Below are positions 4,869-40,668 of a stretch of DNA of 64,000 bases, one piece after another. Source of the stretch: Caldisericia bacterium (GTDB lineage: Bacteria; Caldisericota; Caldisericia; JAAYUI01); NCBI GenBank assembly GCA_963674785.1, contig OY771555.1, positions 144,851-208,850 of the forward strand. The letters are read 5' to 3'. Numbering within the stretch: the first letter of the stretch is position 1; each line of letters opens with the position of its first letter. The position numbers and the translations under genes were made by a program. The notes beneath the pieces were generated by a model. It was not told where the DNA came from and did not search any database. It saw only the letters and a program-made list of their open reading frames with translations.

Positions 4869-5599
4869 TGGTTTTTTAGTAGGTCAATAATTTGGTTTTT
4901 TAGCTCTCCAGGGATTGTCTCTTTTTCGGAATCCCTTGAGATGATAAACTCAGAAAGATCGTTTGAGTGCAAGACTTTGATTGGAGAGTCAGTGATTCTA
5001 AGTGTTGTGTTTGGATGTGTGAAAACAACAACAGGTTCAATCCAGAGTCCATCGGTGTTTTCTGCTACTGATTCATCAATCACTTCCTTCAACTCCCAAG
5101 TTGAACGTTTGATTTGTCTTGCTGGATTTCCTATATGCCCTCTATAAAATCCACCTGCACGACCCCTTTTCAAATAGCTCCATTCTTCTCCCTGCCCATA
5201 TATCTCACCGTTATAGTGTTTGCTTTCGATTGCAAATATTGCGGATTTCCCAACAACAATGTGATCAATATCACAATTTCTGCCTTTCAGCGAAATATTA
5301 TTTAAAAGGGTGAAGTCATCGGAAATTTTCTCCAATGTCTTTGGAACGACCTTTTGACCAGCAAGACCAGCTCTCCAGATTGCAATCTCTCCAGCTCTAT
5401 TCATCAACACTATTCCACCAAAAAGAAAGAGTATAGTTCCGAGAATTATTAACATCCATGGCTGAAAAACACCGTCTGACGAGATTCCATAAGCAACAGC
5501 CACGAGTCCAAGTAAGATTAAAACAAAACCGCCAATAACTCCAAAAGTTTCTTTGACTATTTTTCTTTTTACAAAATCTCTTTTATTAATGACTAACAT
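4865..5599 (-). CDS. NERD domain-containing membrane protein
   Basis: 244 aa; two N-terminal TM helices followed by a NERD-like motif CDIDHIVVGKSAIFAIESKHY. Overlaps neighbours by 4-7 nt (operon). Confidence 0.7.
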   Translation of the reverse strand: MLVINKRDFVKRKIVKETFGVIGGFVLILLGLVAVAYGISSDGVFQPWMLIILGTILFLFGGIVLMNRAGEIAIWRAGLAGQKVVPKTLEKISDDFTLLNNISLKGRNCDIDHIVVGKSAIFAIESKHYNGEIYGQGEEWSYLKRGRAGGFYRGHIGNPARQIKRSTWELKEVIDESVAENTDGLWIEPVVVFTHPNTTLRITDSPIKVLHSNDLSEFIISRDSEKETIPGELKNQIIDLLKNQ

Positions 5600-6153
5600 A
5601 TCCTGAAGCTCCTTCTATGTATCCTTGAAAGCGCATTTTCCTTTATCGCCCTAAAATGCTCTGCGGTTCCATACCCTTTATTTTTTTCAAACCCATACTC
5701 TCGATAGATTTTTGAATACGTATACATGATATAGTCTCTTACGACTTTAGCAACAATTGAGGCTGCGGCAATTGCCTGAAATATTGAATCCCCTTTGACA
5801 ACAGACTCAACACAAGATGGCATATCATTGGGGATATGTGGTCCATCAATTAGAATCTTACCATCGGGATGATCAGAAAAAATGTCGAGAGCAACTCTCT
5901 TCATTCCACCCATAACAGCTCTAGAAATTCCATTTTCATCGATAAAATCATTCGAAATAACGGTTAGACTTACTAAAGAACTTTCTAGAATAATATTTGC
6001 CAAAAGAGTTCTCTTTTTTTCAGATAATTTCTTTGAATCGTTAACATCTTCAATTGATTCGAACAATTTGCAACCACAAATAACAAGGGGGCCTGCAATA
6101 GGCCCCCTTCCTGCTTCGTCAATTCCAATGTGATTTTTATCAAATATTAAAAT
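5593..6153 (-). CDS. rnhB: Ribonuclease HII (start codon non-canonical or unresolved)
   Basis: ORF track gives 5593..6066 (TTG start), but the conserved N-terminal catalytic motif IGIDEAGRGPIAGPLVICGC lies in the same frame upstream (about 6070-6135). No ATG/GTG/TTG exists between the in-frame TAA (6169-6171) and 6066; candidate AUU at 6151-6153 is preceded by AGGUAGGAA. 5' end uncertain. Confidence 0.75.
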   Translation of the reverse strand: MLIFDKNHIGIDEAGRGPIAGPLVICGCKLFESIEDVNDSKKLSEKKRTLLANIILESSLVSLTVISNDFIDENGISRAVMGGMKRVALDIFSDHPDGKILIDGPHIPNDMPSCVESVVKGDSIFQAIAAASIVAKVVRDYIMYTYSKIYREYGFEKNKGYGTAEHFRAIKENALSRIHRRSFRIC

Positions 6154-6160
6154 GCAGTTC

Positions 6161-6745
6161 CTACCTGATTATATGAAATCTATTGAGAGGCCAGAAAATA
6201 ACAAATGCCTCACCAACAATACTCTTTTTTTCAATTGGCCCAAACGATCTGGAGTCTTTTGAAGAATCTCTATTGTCTCCAAGAACAAAATACTCGTTAT
6301 CACCAAGCAACTCTCCACGCTTATGGCCTTCAGATTCTGGAGGGAGGACTTCTTGGCTATAATCGGTATCTGGAAACTTGTTCTCTTCAATAAACGGAAC
6401 ACCGTTTAAATAAACAGTTTTTGTATCTTGATCGTAGTCAATCCACTCGCCCGGAAGACCAATAACACGTTTGATATACTCTTCGCCATTATTCACACTT
6501 TTTGGTGGGTGAAAAACAACAATATCGCCACGTTTGGGTCCCGCCGAGATAAAAGCAAGCTTATTCACAAGAATCAGATCATCGTTGAGAATAGTCGGAG
6601 TCATTGAACCCATCTGCACCCTAAAAGGTTGAACCAAAAAAGTTCTGACACCAAAGGCAAGCAGCAGCGCAAGGACTACAACCGCGATCCACTCAAGAAT
6701 CTCTCTTCTTTTCGACTTTGTTTTAGGAGAAGCTAATTCGGACAC
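6161..6745 (-). CDS. lepB: Signal peptidase I (paralog 1)
   Basis: 194 aa; N-terminal TM anchor; Ser box GSMTPT, Lys box YIKRVIGLPGE, box E GDNRDSSKDSRSFGPI. Confidence 0.9.
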   Translation of the reverse strand: MSELASPKTKSKRREILEWIAVVVLALLLAFGVRTFLVQPFRVQMGSMTPTILNDDLILVNKLAFISAGPKRGDIVVFHPPKSVNNGEEYIKRVIGLPGEWIDYDQDTKTVYLNGVPFIEENKFPDTDYSQEVLPPESEGHKRGELLGDNEYFVLGDNRDSSKDSRSFGPIEKKSIVGEAFVIFWPLNRFHIIR

Positions 6746-6748
6746 TTT

Positions 6749-7132
6749 TTAGTTCTCTTCCGATTTTTTAGCTTTTGTTTCCTTTCTAACAATCCTGTCT
6801 TTAAGACGCTGTTTCTTACCAATCCTGTCTCTAAGGTAGTAAAGTTTTGCCCTTCTGATTTTACCGTGTCTGACAACTTCAATTTTGTCAACAAGCGGGG
6901 AATGTAGTGGATAAACTTTTTCTACTCCAAGGTTCTTTACAACTTTTCTTACAGTAAAAGTTTCAGCTACTCCGCCATTTTTTCTTGCAATCACGGTTCC
7001 TTCAAATATCTGAATCCTTGTTTTTGATCCTTCAGTAATTTTCTGATAGACCTTTACTGTATCACCGATCTCAAAACAATTCGGATCCTTCTTGAGCTGA
7101 TCCTTCACCACATCTCTAAGTAATGACTGCAT
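6749..7132 (-). CDS. rplS: 50S ribosomal protein L19
   Basis: Strong L19 resemblance (GDTVKVYQKI..., HSPLVDKIEVVRHGKIRRAKLYYLR). Start moved to ATG at 7130-7132, preceded by AGGAAGGA; the ORF-track start at 7168 is an upstream alternative. Confidence 0.9.
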   Translation of the reverse strand: MQSLLRDVVKDQLKKDPNCFEIGDTVKVYQKITEGSKTRIQIFEGTVIARKNGGVAETFTVRKVVKNLGVEKVYPLHSPLVDKIEVVRHGKIRRAKLYYLRDRIGKKQRLKDRIVRKETKAKKSEEN

Positions 7133-7242
7133 TTTATTCCTTCCTAATCTCCCTGGCAAAGGACACACCTAACCCAGGGCATACTTCTCATAACAGAATA
7201 TCGAATATATGGTAGTGTAGGACAATATTCAAGTATTTTGTT

Positions 7243-7794
7243 TTAAGGAATAAACTGAAAATGCCCAGGTGGCAGAAAAATTAAAAACGCTTTTCCAAGA
7301 ATCTTTGACTTTTTGACAGGTCCAAAGGCTCTCGAATCAAGTGAGTGTGAACGATTATCACCAATAACGTAGTACTCATCTTCACCAATCAACTCACCAG
7401 ATGCAGAATCACTGTTTTCGAGATTTGTTATTTCTCCAGTTGGGTCAGATAAAACATGGTCGCTGGTTTCAGAAATTCTTTCACCATCAATCCATATCTC
7501 TCCAGCTTTATATTCAATTCTTTCCCCGGGAAGCCCAACAACTCTTTTGATATAGTCATCTTTCCCAGTATATGGTGGTTCAAAAATAACAATATCCCCT
7601 CTTTTTGGTCCATCAAAAATATACGCCATTCTATTTACAAGGATATAATCACCATCATTTAGTGTGGGATACATTGAACTCATTCTCACCTGTCTGGGCT
7701 CAATTGCATAAACCCTGACAACCATCGCAAGACCAATAATCACAGTAAGAACAACTACCCACTCGAGAATTTTCCTCATCTGTTTACTTTTCAT
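7243..7794 (-). CDS. Signal peptidase I (paralog 2)
   Basis: 183 aa; SSMYPTL, YIKRVVGLPGERI, GDNRSHSLDSRAFGPV. Confidence 0.9.
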   Translation of the reverse strand: MKSKQMRKILEWVVVLTVIIGLAMVVRVYAIEPRQVRMSSMYPTLNDGDYILVNRMAYIFDGPKRGDIVIFEPPYTGKDDYIKRVVGLPGERIEYKAGEIWIDGERISETSDHVLSDPTGEITNLENSDSASGELIGEDEYYVIGDNRSHSLDSRAFGPVKKSKILGKAFLIFLPPGHFQFIP

Positions 7795-7807
7795 TTCACA
7801 CTAACTT

Positions 7808-8377
7808 TTACTTTATGAGACCAACATGGTCAAGAGGCCAAAAGACGAAAAAGGCTTTCCCAACAATCTGATTTCTTTTTATCGGGCCAAAACTTCTTGA
7901 ATCCATGGACACATTTCTATGGTCCCCAACAACATAATACTCATCTGAATTAAGCTTTATCCCTTTTTCAAGAATCTCGGAAGCAGAATTAAAATCTTGC
8001 TTATAGTCTGTTTTTTGTTTATCACTATTTTCAACAAAAAGTTTTCCATTGATATAAATCTCATCGCCTGAGACAGAAATGTATTCACCCGGAAGACCGA
8101 TAACCCTTTTTATTAAATCATCTCCAAAACCTTTATTTGGATGGAAAACTATCACATCTCCACGTTTTGGTTTAGATGTATAATAACACATCTTGTTTAT
8201 GAAGACTCTGTCATGATCTTCGATCGTTGGATACATAGAAGATTGTCTCACACCCCTTGGTTCAAATGCATAAATCCTTGTCACCAAAGTAAGGGATGAT
8301 GCAAAAACTATTGCCAAAACCCAACTTATAATCTCTTTTCTTAAACTACTTTTCATAAAAACCCCTCCAACAATCAA
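7808..8377 (-). CDS. Signal peptidase I (paralog 3)
   Basis: 189 aa; SSMYPTI, LIKRVIGLPGEYI, GDHRNVSMDSRSFGPI. Likely start at MKSSLRK (about 8356). Confidence 0.9.
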   Translation of the reverse strand: MIVGGVFMKSSLRKEIISWVLAIVFASSLTLVTRIYAFEPRGVRQSSMYPTIEDHDRVFINKMCYYTSKPKRGDVIVFHPNKGFGDDLIKRVIGLPGEYISVSGDEIYINGKLFVENSDKQKTDYKQDFNSASEILEKGIKLNSDEYYVVGDHRNVSMDSRSFGPIKRNQIVGKAFFVFWPLDHVGLIK

Positions 8378-8931
8378 AAAATACTCAGGTGATCAAGTGG
8401 CCACATAACTATCAAAACCTGACCCTTGATAAGTTCTTTCTCAATCGGCCCAAATGCTCTTGAGTCTCTGGAGACATCTCTGTTGTCCCCTAATACATAA
8501 TACTCGTCATCCCCCAGAATAATTCCATCGTCCGAGTTGCTTATTTGCATTCGGTTCGAGGCTTCAAAATTATGTCTAATGTTATCTTTGTCAAAAATCT
8601 TGCCATTTACAACAAGTTTACTTCCATTGTCTTCAATCACATCACCAGGTAAACCTACGACTCTTTTAACAAGGTCTTCTTCTTTATCAGGTGACCTGAA
8701 AACGATAATGTCCCCTCGATGGGGTTTTCCAAACGAATATGCAAGTTTTGAAACAAGGATAATATCCCCGTCCATAAGAGTTGGAAGCATTGATCTCTGT
8801 CTAACCTGTCTTGGTTCTAGAACGGATACTCTCAGGAAATAAAAAACTGTCAATACCAGAAGTATCGACACAGCCATTTTTATAGAATTTGCAAAAACTT
8901 TATTCATCTCTAAGACCATACAACCTATCAA
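8374..8931 (-). CDS. Signal peptidase I (paralog 4)
   Basis: 185 aa; RSMLPTL, LVKRVVGLPGDVI, GDNRDVSRDSRAFGPI. Likely start at MNKVFAN (about 8907). Confidence 0.9.
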   Translation of the reverse strand: MIGCMVLEMNKVFANSIKMAVSILLVLTVFYFLRVSVLEPRQVRQRSMLPTLMDGDIILVSKLAYSFGKPHRGDIIVFRSPDKEEDLVKRVVGLPGDVIEDNGSKLVVNGKIFDKDNIRHNFEASNRMQISNSDDGIILGDDEYYVLGDNRDVSRDSRAFGPIEKELIKGQVLIVMWPLDHLSIF

Positions 8932-9451
8932 GAATAATTGCTCCAGCAGCTCGAACCGAAAGATGATTAAACTCGGTTGGTCCGCAGATAGGATTCAGAA
9001 TATAATCACATCTTTTCATCGTCTCATCCGTCAAACCCCAACCTGTTCCAAGAATTATCATTATGTTTTCTAGTTCCAATTTTCTGAAATCACCAAAGCT
9101 TATTGAATTTTCATTTCTCTTTGCACTGGTGCCAATGATACGAGGTTTCGCACCTGCGATCTTTGTAAAGTCTTCAATCGCCAAATCGAAATTGGGAGTT
9201 ATTCTGCAAAGCTCAAGTGCATGTGATCTGTGTGGATTCCACGTCCTTCCACCACCAACATTCCAGAAACCAAGGATTCTCTCAACGATTCCTCTCTGAA
9301 GTGGAGCAGGATGAGTGATGTAAAACCTATCAATTCCAAATGTTCTACTTGACCTTGCAAGGTCGTGAATATCAAATGGAGTCACAGATGAAGCTTGAAT
9401 TTCATTTTTCCTGTCAAGTACCGGATGATGTATGAGGACGAGTGATTTCAA
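8900..9451 (-). CDS. SPOUT-superfamily methyltransferase-like protein (trmD-operon associated)
   Basis: 183 aa; motifs ILGTGWGL and HLSVRAAGAIILDRL resemble SPOUT proteins; start overlaps the trmD stop (ATGA). Family assignment is from memory and tentative. Confidence 0.5.
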   Translation of the reverse strand: MKSLVLIHHPVLDRKNEIQASSVTPFDIHDLARSSRTFGIDRFYITHPAPLQRGIVERILGFWNVGGGRTWNPHRSHALELCRITPNFDLAIEDFTKIAGAKPRIIGTSAKRNENSISFGDFRKLELENIMIILGTGWGLTDETMKRCDYILNPICGPTEFNHLSVRAAGAIILDRLYGLRDE

Positions 9452-28117: not shown

Positions 28118-29281
28118 ATGAAGCGTTTCGTTACATTTGCACTTATTCTTTTCCTCGCACTTGGAGTCTTTGTCTCGTGTGGTGCTGAAAAAAAGGTGGA
28201 TACAGAACCGACACCAGCAGACGTCACACCAGCAGAACTCCCTCTTTTGAGAGTGGGACACGTCAATCAGGATCATCACCTTGCACTCTACGTCGCAGCA
28301 CTAAAAGGCGAATTCTTTAAGGATCAAGGTGTCTGGATGACAGAGATCAAACCTAAAGAAAGATACACACTCCACACAGAAAATGGAGCTATCGCTGAGG
28401 TTCAACTTGTCAAATCTAAAGGTGGTTCAGAGATGACAAACAACCTCCTTGCAGGTCTTTTTGATATTGGCTTTGGTGGAGTTCCTGCAGTTATGAGTGT
28501 TGTTGATAAAGGAAAAGATGTCAGGATTCTGATGCCTTTGCAAAACGCTGGCGACCAGCTCATCGTAAAAAAAGATATGCCAGTCGAAAACTGGGAAGAG
28601 TTTGTAGAATACGTAAAAAATAACGAAACACAGCTGAAACTCGGATACAAAGCCCCAACTGCAGTTCAATACATCGTTGCTCAAAAGGCATTTACAGAAG
28701 TTGGAATCACACAAACAGAAGACCCAACAAATACAGATGCAATGGTTCTTTGGATCAATCAAAAGGGTCAAAATAACATGACCACAAATCTGGCTGCAGG
28801 TCAAGTTGATGGGTTTGTAGCAAATCAACCAACACCGGCACAAGCGATCATATCTGATGTAGGAAAATTTATCACTGAACTTTCTGTATTGCCACCAGAT
28901 GGAATGTGGAACCATCACCCATGCTGTATGGTTTGCAGCAATGAAAAGGTCAAAACAGAATACCCAGAGGAAACAAAACAGTTCCTTAAACTCATCATGC
29001 TTGCAACAGACCACATAAATGACGACATGGATGATGCAATCGAAATTGCCTACGAATTCCTCGGACAAAAAGAAGGGGTTGAACACTTATCCATTCCAAC
29101 TGTATACTACAACTGCGATGACGATGAAGTTTGGAGAGGTGGAGTTGCAACATGGGCAGTTGTTATGAATGAAATCGGAAAATATACAGGAGAACTAAAG
29201 GATATCAACGATGAAAGAGCAGTTGATCTCTGTGTTGATTTCACATTCCTTCACGAACTTCAAAAGGAGTTAGGAAAATAG
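28118..29281 (+). CDS. ABC transporter substrate-binding lipoprotein (NMT1/SsuA/ThiY-like)
   Basis: 387 aa; lipobox FVSC; periplasmic-binding fold resemblance; unusual WNHHPCCMVCSN Cys/His cluster. Confidence 0.8.
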   Translation: MKRFVTFALILFLALGVFVSCGAEKKVDTEPTPADVTPAELPLLRVGHVNQDHHLALYVAALKGEFFKDQGVWMTEIKPKERYTLHTENGAIAEVQLVKSKGGSEMTNNLLAGLFDIGFGGVPAVMSVVDKGKDVRILMPLQNAGDQLIVKKDMPVENWEEFVEYVKNNETQLKLGYKAPTAVQYIVAQKAFTEVGITQTEDPTNTDAMVLWINQKGQNNMTTNLAAGQVDGFVANQPTPAQAIISDVGKFITELSVLPPDGMWNHHPCCMVCSNEKVKTEYPEETKQFLKLIMLATDHINDDMDDAIEIAYEFLGQKEGVEHLSIPTVYYNCDDDEVWRGGVATWAVVMNEIGKYTGELKDINDERAVDLCVDFTFLHELQKELGK

Positions 29282-29313
29282 ACCGACAAAAGATTTCTAA
29301 AATTTTATGGAGC

Positions 29314-30123
29314 GTGGGTGGAGCAATTGTTCTACCCCTGCTTCTTTTTCTTGTTTGGGATTACAGTGCTGCAAGACTTGGCTCATCAACTCTGCTTCCC
29401 AGAGTATCCGATGTTTTTGATGTGGTTTTGCATCCCACAGAAGACCTAATCAGACAAGGCACCCTGCTCTTCCATGTCTATGTTTCATCGATTCGGGTAT
29501 TGATGGGTTTTGTGATAGGATCGTTGCTTGCCATAGTTCTTGGAATGATAATGGGTTTATCAGACAAAGTAAGGCATTTTGTCACACCATTCATCGAGAT
29601 ACTAAGACCGCTTTGTCCTGTTGCCTGGATTCCCTTCGCGATAATTATCTTCGGTGGAGCGACCCTTTCAAACACATTTGGATACAAGTTTACTGATTCG
29701 ATTCTTGATTATGTTCAGATTGCTCAACTATTCATTATCGCCTGGGGAGCATTCTTTCCGGTATTAATAAACACGATTGATGGCGTCAGTGGTGTCAGAA
29801 AAATATGGGTTGAAACAGCAAAAACGATGAACGCATCCAAACTACAGATTTGGTCAAAGGTGATTCTCCCCGCAAGCTTCCCATCCATTTTGACTGGGCT
29901 TAAGGTTGGACTTGGTATCAGCTGGATGGTTGTAATTGCAGCCGAGATGTTTCCGGGTCCTTCTGCTGGAATCGGGTATCTGATGATGGAGGCATACGCA
30001 CAAACTGAAATCCATATTCTCGCTGCCGGATTAATCACAGTTGGAATCATCGGAGCGCTTCTGAACGCCATTTTAGCGGTTATCCATAAAACCTTTGCGG
30101 GTTGGCAGGCGAAGGAACGATAA
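29314..30123 (+). CDS. ABC transporter permease (NitT/TauT-type)
   Basis: 269 aa; six TM segments with the binding-protein-dependent permease signature region. Confidence 0.85.
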   Translation: MGGAIVLPLLLFLVWDYSAARLGSSTLLPRVSDVFDVVLHPTEDLIRQGTLLFHVYVSSIRVLMGFVIGSLLAIVLGMIMGLSDKVRHFVTPFIEILRPLCPVAWIPFAIIIFGGATLSNTFGYKFTDSILDYVQIAQLFIIAWGAFFPVLINTIDGVSGVRKIWVETAKTMNASKLQIWSKVILPASFPSILTGLKVGLGISWMVVIAAEMFPGPSAGIGYLMMEAYAQTEIHILAAGLITVGIIGALLNAILAVIHKTFAGWQAKER

Positions 30124-30935: not shown

Positions 30936-31956
30936 AGAAGAAGAGTTCAGGCTTACAAAATTTGCCGGATGTGCTGGTTGAGAGAGTAAGTGGGGGCCGG
31001 GAGCTCTCAAGAAGTTACTCAGTGACTTACCTGTTTTTGAGTCACCAGATTTAATCACTCGTGACGTCAATAAAGCTGATGCTGCCGTTTATAAAATCAA
31101 TGATGATTTATACGGTATCTATACAATTGATGTTTTCTCACCAATTGTTGATGACCCTGAAGACTTTGGTGCAATCGCCTTTGCAAATTGTATTTCTGAT
31201 GTTTGCGCAATGGGTGGGACACCAGTTCTTGGGCTAAATGTTTGTATGTTCCCAGCAGCAGCTCCAGTTGAAAAACTCAACCTTATACTTAAGGGTGCAT
31301 CTGAGTCAGCCCAAAAAGAAGGGGTAATAATTGCCGGTGGACACACAACCAAAAATGATGAACTCCACTACGGACTCTCAGTTTATGGGACTGTAAAACC
31401 AGTAGATCTCAGGCTTTCATCAAATGCAAAACCCGGAGACCATATCATCCTTACAAAAGGACTCGGGACGGGTATCCTTTTTGCAGCAAAAGATAGGGCT
31501 GAGGGCGTTAACTGGCAATCAGCAATTGATTCGATGAAACAGACATCCGTTATTGCGTCAAAAATCCTAACCGAATTTGGATGCAGGTGTAGCACCGATA
31601 TTACAGGTTTTGGGTTTGTACCACATCTTCTTGAAGTACTCGAAGAGTCAAGGGTAGCAGCCAAAATTAATCCAGAATCTCTTCCGCTTCTTCCTGGCGT
31701 GATTGACTTTTCTAGATCATTTGCCTGTCCGGTTTTATCAACAAACATGGAACTTGCCGGGGCAAAGTTCGACTCTGGCAAACATGATCCTAAATGGATC
31801 AACATCTGCTTTGACGCCCAAACTTCTGGTGGCTTTATTGCATTTGTTTCAGAAGAAAATGCCGGTAAGTGTTTAGAAAAGCTTATTGATGCAGGATATC
31901 AGGCAGCAGATGTTGGTGAGGTTGCTGAGGGTGAGTCGAAAATTACATTGGTTTAG
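30922..31956 (+). CDS. selD: Selenophosphate synthetase with in-frame UGA (selenocysteine) at 30979-30981
   Basis: Frame of ORF 31210..31956 extended upstream: MKMNKEEEFRLTKFAGCAG[U]ESKWGPGALKKLL...DAAVYKI...SPIVDDPEDFGAIAFANCISDVCAMGG. UGA aligns with E. coli SelD Cys17 and the Lys three residues on with Lys20. Start ATG 30922 (or 30928) overlaps the ATPase stop. Confidence 0.85.
30982..31008 (+). promoter_or_regulatory. Candidate SECIS hairpin immediately 3' of the selD UGA
   Basis: GAGAGU-AAGUGGGGGCCGGGA-GCUCUC: 6-bp lower stem with G-rich apical region starting directly after UGA. Hand-folded, not energy-evaluated. Confidence 0.35.
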
Positions 31957-38746: not shown

Positions 38747-40280
<1,534 letters not shown>

Positions 40281-40668
40281 CATCTTATATATGTATTATA
40301 TATAAAGTGTTATATTAAATAACTAGGTGCTCTCACACCTATATTGTCATTCTGGAATTGCACCGGATATTGACTTTCATGTGTTAATTGCTATCTAGTT
40401 TTCAAACTACTACATTTCCCAGAAGTGAATCGAGGAAAGTTCAGTTTACCACAAAAGGTGACCACCGTCAAGCAGTTACCCTTTCGGCCAACGAGTAATG
40501 AAATATAACCCAAAAAGTTATAGAGTCAAGGAATGGATATAACATGAATAATATATTGCATTCATGGGACTTTCTTGAGAATCAAATTCAATAATCGAAA
40601 GGTTCCTTTAACCATCATTCGAAAGATTTTCACCAAAACGCTTCACATTCAACGATTAAATCGAATCC

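Follow-up and report, generated by a model that had tools for sequence, protein, structure and literature searches.

AUU has been confirmed as the start codon of infC and pcnB, and in E. coli the codons AUU, AUA, AUC and CUG initiate at roughly 0.02-3% of the level of AUG (10.1101/063800). In Deinococcus, ATC and CTG starts have been proven by N-terminal proteomics, the examples being dnaA (ATC), rpsL (CTG) and Deide_03051 (CTG) (PMC2830850). Termination-reinitiation coupling between adjacent genes has also been described, and operates over very short stop-start distances only (PMC10666635; reviewed in PMC12548453). Here we report on a locus that has features in common with each of these systems, the rnhB gene for RNase HII in a stretch of 64,000 nt from a Caldisericia bacterium (assembly GCA_963674785.1, contig OY771555.1, positions 144,851 to 208,850). 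This whole stretch is called the window; coordinates refer to it throughout, and both rnhB and its upstream neighbour lepB (signal peptidase I) are encoded on its minus strand. The rnhB frame has no canonical start codon (ATG, GTG or TTG) ahead of the codons for its catalytic motif and, on balance, we think that its translation starts at an AUU just downstream of the lepB stop.

The likeness to infC and pcnB is that, in a gene of an essential pathway or with a housekeeping role, the only possible start of the conserved frame is an AUU that follows a Shine-Dalgarno (SD)-like element. Expression of infC and pcnB is low, as IF3 discriminates against AUU (10.1101/063800; PMC2830850). The AUU of infC is widely conserved and autoregulatory, whereas that of rnhB is confined to a small clade, where it would replace the GTG of most relatives. 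The Deinococcus cases resemble rnhB in that conserved N-terminal residues required for the fold are encoded upstream of the first canonical codon, and in that genes of DNA metabolism are concerned (PMC2830850); those starts, however, have peptide evidence and are conserved throughout a genus or phylum, while the rnhB case is known from the comparative sequence of two genomes. As in translationally coupled gene pairs, lepB and rnhB are co-directional and closely spaced (7 nt here, 0-8 nt in most relatives), and the upstream stop is overlapped by an SD-like motif (PMC6728339, PMC10666635, PMC12548453). Coupled genes typically overlap by 4 or 1 nt and start with AUG or GUG, whereas rnhB would start with AUU, and the products of lepB and rnhB are not subunits of one complex. 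The protein encoded in the window is nothing unusual, as it shares with bacterial RNase HII, e.g. the T. maritima RNase H2 (PDB 3O3F/3O3G), the full domain, the DEDD residues, the GRG motif and the tyrosine of the KGY motif, so that the difference is confined to the initiation signal. A start of rnhB at AUU would be a rare non-canonical start combined with a start-site mis-annotation of a known type, and not a new mechanism.

The rnhB reading frame

The rnhB frame is open from a TAA (6171-6169), located within the 3' end of lepB, to the stop codon TAG (5595-5593). Following the TAA, its translation is S G R N C I L I F D K N H I G I D E A G R G P I A G P L V I C G C K and then L, encoded by TTG (6066-6064). 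Both the sequence and its translation show that none of the 34 codons from 6168 to 6067 is ATG, GTG or TTG. The TTG at 6066 is the first canonical codon in the frame and opens a 157-aa open reading frame (ORF) in the mechanically compiled ORF list; the public protein of the same genome (P0001) is the identical 157-aa version. The segment GIDEAGRGP, which contributes the first two catalytic carboxylates (Asp and Glu) and the GRG motif, is encoded at 6129-6103 and is hence missing from that version. The original prediction, made from the letters of the window, had placed this segment in frame upstream of the TTG and had found no canonical codon between the in-frame TAA and 6066, and in both points the reading frame bears it out.

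Startless runs of such length are not improbable by themselves. ATG, GTG and TTG account for 3.8% of internal codons, such that a run without any of them is expected with P=0.26 over 34 codons and P=0.58 over 14. The weight of the observation comes from the presence of the family's catalytic N-terminus inside the run: position 1 of the Pfam RNase_HII profile corresponds to the Ile codon at 6132, and the domain begins 22 codons upstream of the TTG.

The codon that we propose as the start is the ATT at 6153-6151. It was also pointed out in the original prediction, which had located it downstream of an SD-like string overlapping the lepB TAG (6163-6161). The arrangement is correct; the spacing of 6 nt given there needs correction, as the ATT stands 4 nt past AGGUAGGAA. 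The string AGGTAGGAA occupies 6166-6158, and the ATT is 6 nt past AGGUAGG and 5 nt past the AGGA core. With this start, the full-length rnhB would extend from 6153 to 5593 and comprise 186 codons.

The two candidate products differ in their match to the RNase HII family. Starting from ATT 6153, the 186-aa product scores 184.3 bits with the NCBIfam equivalog model NF000595 (cutoff 167), covering model positions 4-183 of 188, and 119.9 bits with Pfam RNase_HII (PF01351), covering positions 1-197 of 199. Its alignment with T. maritima RNase HII (3O3G) runs over the full length and includes the active-site segment. The 157-aa product from TTG 6066 reaches 152.1 bits with NF000595, which is under the cutoff. 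In an alignment with nine homologues (A2), the invariant columns are D17, E18, G20-R21-G22, D108, D127 and Y166. All four carboxylates are present in the ATT product (the Asp-Glu of GIDEAGRG, the Asp of LIDG and the Asp of KGD), as are GRG and the Tyr of KGYGT. The catalytic roles assigned here to the DEDD residues, GRG and the Tyr are those of the published RNase H2 structures. The ATT-initiated protein is, as predicted from its sequence, a complete RNase HII. The TTG-initiated product has neither the first two of the four catalytic carboxylates nor the GRG motif, and on this assignment could not be an active enzyme. The TTG at 6066 is a plain Leu codon, because the corresponding codon is TTA in the closest relative and TTA or CTA in the next clade (see below). 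The start of the 157-residue ORF is thus almost certainly called wrongly, at the cost of half of the active site.

The lepB-rnhB junction in related genomes

Syntenic loci were recovered with the rnhB and lepB proteins, and the nearest proteins are labelled Caldisericia. The region has the gene order trmD – methyltransferase – lepB copies – rplS – lepB – rnhB – NERD – yraN, of which lepB-rnhB-NERD-yraN is kept in most related loci; in one of them (L103), a second lepB copy adjoins rnhB. Canonical rnhB starts are found in ten related loci that represent five other Caldisericia lineages; they are GTG or, in one lineage, ATG, and in most cases lie 0-8 nt after the lepB stop. In the clade of L002 and L095-L098 (lepB 80% identical), the junction reads AGG TAG GTG, the GTG abutting the stop with a gap of 0 nt. 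In L099-L101 and L102 (lepB 74-75% identical), a gap of 3 nt is present (TAG CGA/CGT GTG). Among the more distant loci, L003 and L004 have a GTG 8 nt past the TAG, L105 has a called GTG inside lepB (34 nt inside), and L103 has an ATG 120 nt downstream with its own GAGGA. Because these canonical starts mostly occur there, the placement of the start beside the lepB stop is ancestral. The start site of rnhB is evolutionarily labile across Caldisericia; L003 has CTG where L105 has the called GTG.

The window departs from this pattern together with a single other locus, L001, on contig JAWKOF010000016.1 of the metagenome-assembled genome (MAG) GCA_041391325.1, which is an independent assembly from a different species. 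The two are 95% identical in lepB and 82% in rnhB at the amino acid level, and third codon positions of neighbouring genes are about 63% identical. Both carry the startless junction TAGGAACTG[C/T]ATT, which among the loci compared is confined to them. The L001 junction, TAGGAACTGTATT, differs from that of the window at a single position of the 7-nt spacer between TAG and ATT, and the frame relation of the two genes is equal. The SD-like sequence AGGUAGGA (6166-6159), overlapping the lepB stop, is identical in L001, and the in-frame TAA which closes the rnhB frame upstream is present there too. In the window, the interval from the TAG to a conserved Phe codon is 2 nt shorter than in the L002 clade. 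By parsimony, the loss of the GTG predates the split between the window and L001 species.

A comparison of rnhB 5' regions in related genomes, which had been put forward as a check, has thereby been carried out: the relatives have canonical starts, and the startless ATT junction is common to the window and L001. The original prediction had named orthologues of the short form as evidence against itself; no orthologue starts at a position equivalent to 6066, and none lacks the DEAGRG motif. In a lepB protein search, the window clade had two members in the collections searched. In a scan of genome contigs, distant RNase HII genes filled the matches listed, and none from Caldisericia was among them. 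Scanning metagenomes for the pattern AKVVRDYIM yielded relatives of about 40% identity and no closer ones.

Selection on rnhB

The ratio of non-synonymous to synonymous substitutions (dN/dS) was computed between the window and L001, with a frameshift in the L001 copy (described below) masked. For the whole gene it is 0.157 (dN 0.097, dS 0.62), and over the 28 comparable codons upstream of TTG 6066 it is 0.20. The neighbouring genes have values of 0.015 (rplS), 0.020 (the adjacent lepB copy), 0.045 (NERD) and 0.088 (yraN). These ratios indicate that rnhB is less constrained than its neighbours, yet clearly not drifting. At the DNA level, the stretch from 6153 to 6067 is 90% identical to L001, which is above the rest of the gene. 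Amino acid replacements, polarised with outgroups, number 9 on the window branch and 13 on the L001 branch, and none affects an invariant column; this outgroup test showed no asymmetry (9 vs 13) that would point to a lineage-specific relaxation of selection. Intergenic identity was considered as a neutral baseline and discarded, as the rplS leader is 95% conserved, and third codon positions were substituted for it.

When neutral evolution was simulated at 0.1-0.2 substitutions per site, the 186-codon ORF remained free of stops in only 5.7% to 0.3% of trials. The rnhB of the window has neither a stop nor a frameshift across its 186 codons, and shows neither the dN/dS near 1 nor the disruption by which a pseudogene is recognised. 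Because purifying selection and an intact ORF have persisted after the loss of the GTG, we infer that rnhB, its N-terminus included, must have been translated for most of the time since then.

The initiation codon

Between the in-frame TAA and the catalytic motif, the near-cognate codons in the rnhB frame are limited to ATT 6153, ATA 6147, ATT 6132 and ATT 6126. The window, L001, the L002 clade, L099 and L102 all share Leu(-8) and Phe(-6), numbered backwards from the Gly of GxDE, and because of this conservation across clades the start should be at or before codon -9. ATT 6153 is codon -9 and is the sole AUG-like codon between the TAA and Leu(-8). It is retained in L001, where ATA 6147 is replaced by GTA.

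The 3' tail of the window's own 16S rRNA carries the canonical anti-SD sequence GGATCACCTCCTTTCTA, with which AGGUAGGA is calculated to form a duplex of -6.5 kcal/mol; ORF starts in the window have a median of -6.0, with the best at -9 to -13. The first 36 nt from the ATT have a G+C content of 19% (36% in the gene as a whole), and fold prediction leaves them unpaired, as is typical of initiation regions. The ATT follows the lepB stop at 7 nt on the same strand. This spacing falls in the short range in which termination-reinitiation coupling works (PMC10666635; PMC12548453), the genes of such pairs overlapping or being no more than about 10 nt apart.

Our proposal is that the canonical rnhB start was lost in the common ancestor of the window genome and its sister species, and that initiation would now occur at the AUU at 6153-6151, which is located 7 nt downstream of the lepB UAG and 5 nt downstream of the AGGA core of the SD-like sequence that overlaps this UAG. 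Ribosomes finishing lepB (6745-6161, Pfam Peptidase_S26, the fourth paralogue), which would be the coupling partner, or 30S subunits held by AGGUAGGA, would start at the AUU with initiator tRNA at low efficiency. This may yield the small amount of RNase HII that the cell needs, in the form of a functional, full-length protein of about 186 residues. Taken together, we hold initiation at ATT 6153 to be somewhat more probable than the alternatives combined.

Several observations weigh against this proposal. Initiation at AUU is inefficient in model organisms. The SD-like sequence is only average, with 6.7% of all ATT triplets matching the 16S tail as well as ATT 6153 does. Conservation of the ATT rests on one comparison, as the clade consists of two genomes in the databases searched. 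The gene evolves faster than its neighbours (omega 0.157 vs 0.015-0.09). Furthermore, a single nucleotide is deleted between GRGP and AGP in the L001 copy of rnhB (CCT ATT GCA to CCT G-T GCA), which shifts the frame. The site is CCTGTGCAGG (L001:3981-3990), and within L001:3976-3995 the change is from CCTATTGCA to CCTGTGCA, in the loop of a G+C-rich hairpin. The NCBI protein of L001, MEZ4813314.1, starts at L001:4001, an ATT codon downstream of the deletion. The deletion may be a genuine inactivation or a fault of the assembly; elsewhere in the 8.5 kb compared, no other gene of L001 is broken. If the deletion is real, rnhB is dispensable in the L001 lineage, and the case for a pseudogene in the window is strengthened.

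Alternative explanations

The most serious alternative, which we nevertheless consider unlikely, is that rnhB is a recent pseudogene or a gene being lost. According to this explanation, a 2-nt change at the junction removed the GTG, the locus now produces no protein or an inactive fragment of 157 residues, and too little time has elapsed for further decay. Model bacteria that have other RNases H can do without RNase HII, and a loss would be compatible with this. The canonical start of all other lineages is indeed missing here, dN/dS is two- to ten-fold above that of the flanking genes, and the deletion in the GRGP/AGP region of L001 is the sole frameshift in the region compared. The loss of the start, however, appears to be old, as it is common to species that differ at about 37% of neighbouring third codon positions. 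Over this time dN/dS has stayed at 0.16, the invariant columns are untouched, and the window copy is free of stops, an outcome reached in only 0.3-5.7% of the neutral trials; moreover, the stretch upstream of TTG 6066 is better conserved between the species than the rest of the gene. The original prediction had left the choice between a rare AUU or AUA start and an N-terminally defective gene, and the comparative data (the L001 junction, selection, and Leu(-8) and Phe(-6)) favour the former.

If rnhB is translated in its conserved frame, the start might be at a non-canonical codon other than ATT 6153, namely ATA 6147-6145 or ATT 6132-6130, the latter directly before Gly-Ile-Asp-Glu. Both are near-cognate and in frame. 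For ATT 6132 it can be added that L003 and L004 are called with GTG directly before GVDEAG, and that the L001 codon is ATC, which is near-cognate as well. On the other side, ATA 6147 is GTA in L001 and would exclude Leu(-8), while ATT 6132 is not preceded by an SD-like sequence (duplex of -2.3 kcal/mol) and would leave out Leu(-8) as well as Phe(-6). Four clades conserve these two residues, and we therefore regard both codons as improbable starts. An error of sequencing or assembly, in the form of a 1-2 nt indel at the lepB-rnhB junction that hides a GTG, would account for the window being 2 nt shorter than the L002 clade from the TAG to the conserved Phe codon. It is very unlikely because the independent MAG of a different species has the matching startless junction, with one base differing and the same frame relation, and the remaining genes of the region are intact. 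We give equally little credence to recoding, for which two routes are conceivable. Relative to lepB, rnhB is in the +1 frame, and a shift could take place only at the last two codons of lepB ahead of a stop, a prfB-like geometry, such that a +1 frameshift at AGG-UAG (6166-6161) would create a LepB-RNase HII fusion. This route was rejected, as all relatives examined except L105, with its called GTG inside lepB, start rnhB separately after the lepB stop; there is also no stimulatory SD upstream of AGG-UAG, and the exported C-terminus of a signal peptidase would presumably misplace a DNA-repair enzyme. The other route would use TTG 6143, in the +1 frame, and a -1 slip on A-AAA-A, as the TTG is followed by a run of five A (6143-6133). 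It was rejected as well, as in L001 the A-run is lost and the frame closes at once (TTG ATA TAA); the spacing from AGGA to TTG 6143 is 15 nt. Readthrough of TAA 6171 from a 77-codon ORF in an alternative frame of lepB was also discarded, since this ORF is off-frame of the conserved gene and poorly conserved as protein.

A hairpin within the 5' region and the genes around rnhB

The codons for RGPIAGPL contain a 9-bp G+C-rich hairpin, AAGGGGGCC-N7-GGCCCCCTT (6109-6085). L001 retains it, and so does the L002 clade, as GGGGTCCA/TGGACCCC with one compensatory pair (G:C to U:A); L099 and L102 lack it. Third-position identity to L001 is 0.86 in the 5' stretch of rnhB vs 0.71 in the rest of the gene and 0.63 in the neighbours. 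A consensus scan flagged the hairpin as an intrinsic terminator. This was rejected, as the region has 3 terminator-like structures vs 3.6 in shuffled sequences, and the hairpin lies inside a coding motif and is absent in L099 and L102.

Four lepB paralogues (6161-6745, 7243-7794, 7808-8377 and 8374-8931) form one co-directional cluster around rplS on the minus strand (6161-8931), an arrangement which is kept in related Caldisericia loci with two to four copies. The region upstream of rplS (L19), 7133-7242 on the minus strand, is 95.5% identical to L001, compared with about 63% for third codon positions. It has no match to an Rfam family at the gathering threshold and is probably a conserved leader or promoter, as judged from this conservation. 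Downstream, the start of the NERD-domain gene and the end of rnhB share 7 nt (ATGTTAG, 5599-5593), and the stop of the NERD gene overlaps the GTG of yraN/UPF0102 (4868-4865). Together, rnhB, the NERD gene and yraN form a tightly packed operon, in which translation is likely coupled.

Startless frames elsewhere in the window

The window was scanned for stop-to-stop frames of at least 100 codons, of which there are 98, and frames with 20 or more startless leading codons were flagged; this list was not filtered for real genes. Besides rnhB, 21 frames were flagged, and the Pfam check covered four of them (1082-1693, 8374-8994, 29239-30123 and 30982-31956). Among the four, only 30982-31956 has a domain upstream of its first start. 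It was rejected as a start-codon case, as it is part of selD interrupted by a selenocysteine TGA. As far as these four frames show, the window thus gives no sign of odd start codons being used genome-wide.

The selD gene (selenide, water dikinase), 30922/30928-31956 on the plus strand, scores 267.8 bits with TIGR00476 and is represented in the ORF track only by a fragment from ATG 31210. The in-frame TGA (30979-30981) is located at the active-site Cys/Sec position (FAGCAG-U-ESKWGPG), and the organism appears to use selenocysteine. A GAGAG...CUCUC hairpin after this TGA folds no better than shuffled sequence. The window also contains a complete 16S rRNA gene (38747-40282, minus strand). An Rfam scan of the 64 kb at the gathering threshold found no 23S or 5S rRNA, so that the rRNA genes appear to be unlinked.

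Implications

The immediate value of these results is a correction of annotation, as pipelines restricted to ATG, GTG and TTG will repeat the mis-call of 157 residues. It was the startless but homology-bearing 5' region that singled out rnhB, and the scan for long startless stretches recovered both rnhB and selD. If verified, rnhB would add one more genuine AUU start, from outside the model phyla, to a short list.

Beyond annotation, the locus represents a natural experiment on the loss of a start codon, in which a housekeeping gene of DNA repair that lacks its GTG stays under purifying selection. The persistence of this selection after the loss suggests that near-cognate initiation next to an upstream stop can sustain gene function. 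A bolder version, which we hold to be doubtful, is that the AUU start of rnhB is a stable, selected state which has persisted through speciation and is driven by reinitiation at the lepB UAG and not by de novo binding of 30S subunits. If this were true, it would represent a natural case in which termination-reinitiation licenses a near-cognate start. The dosage of RNase HII could then follow the activity of IF3 or the translation of lepB, or the stringency of start-codon selection could be relaxed in this little-studied phylum.

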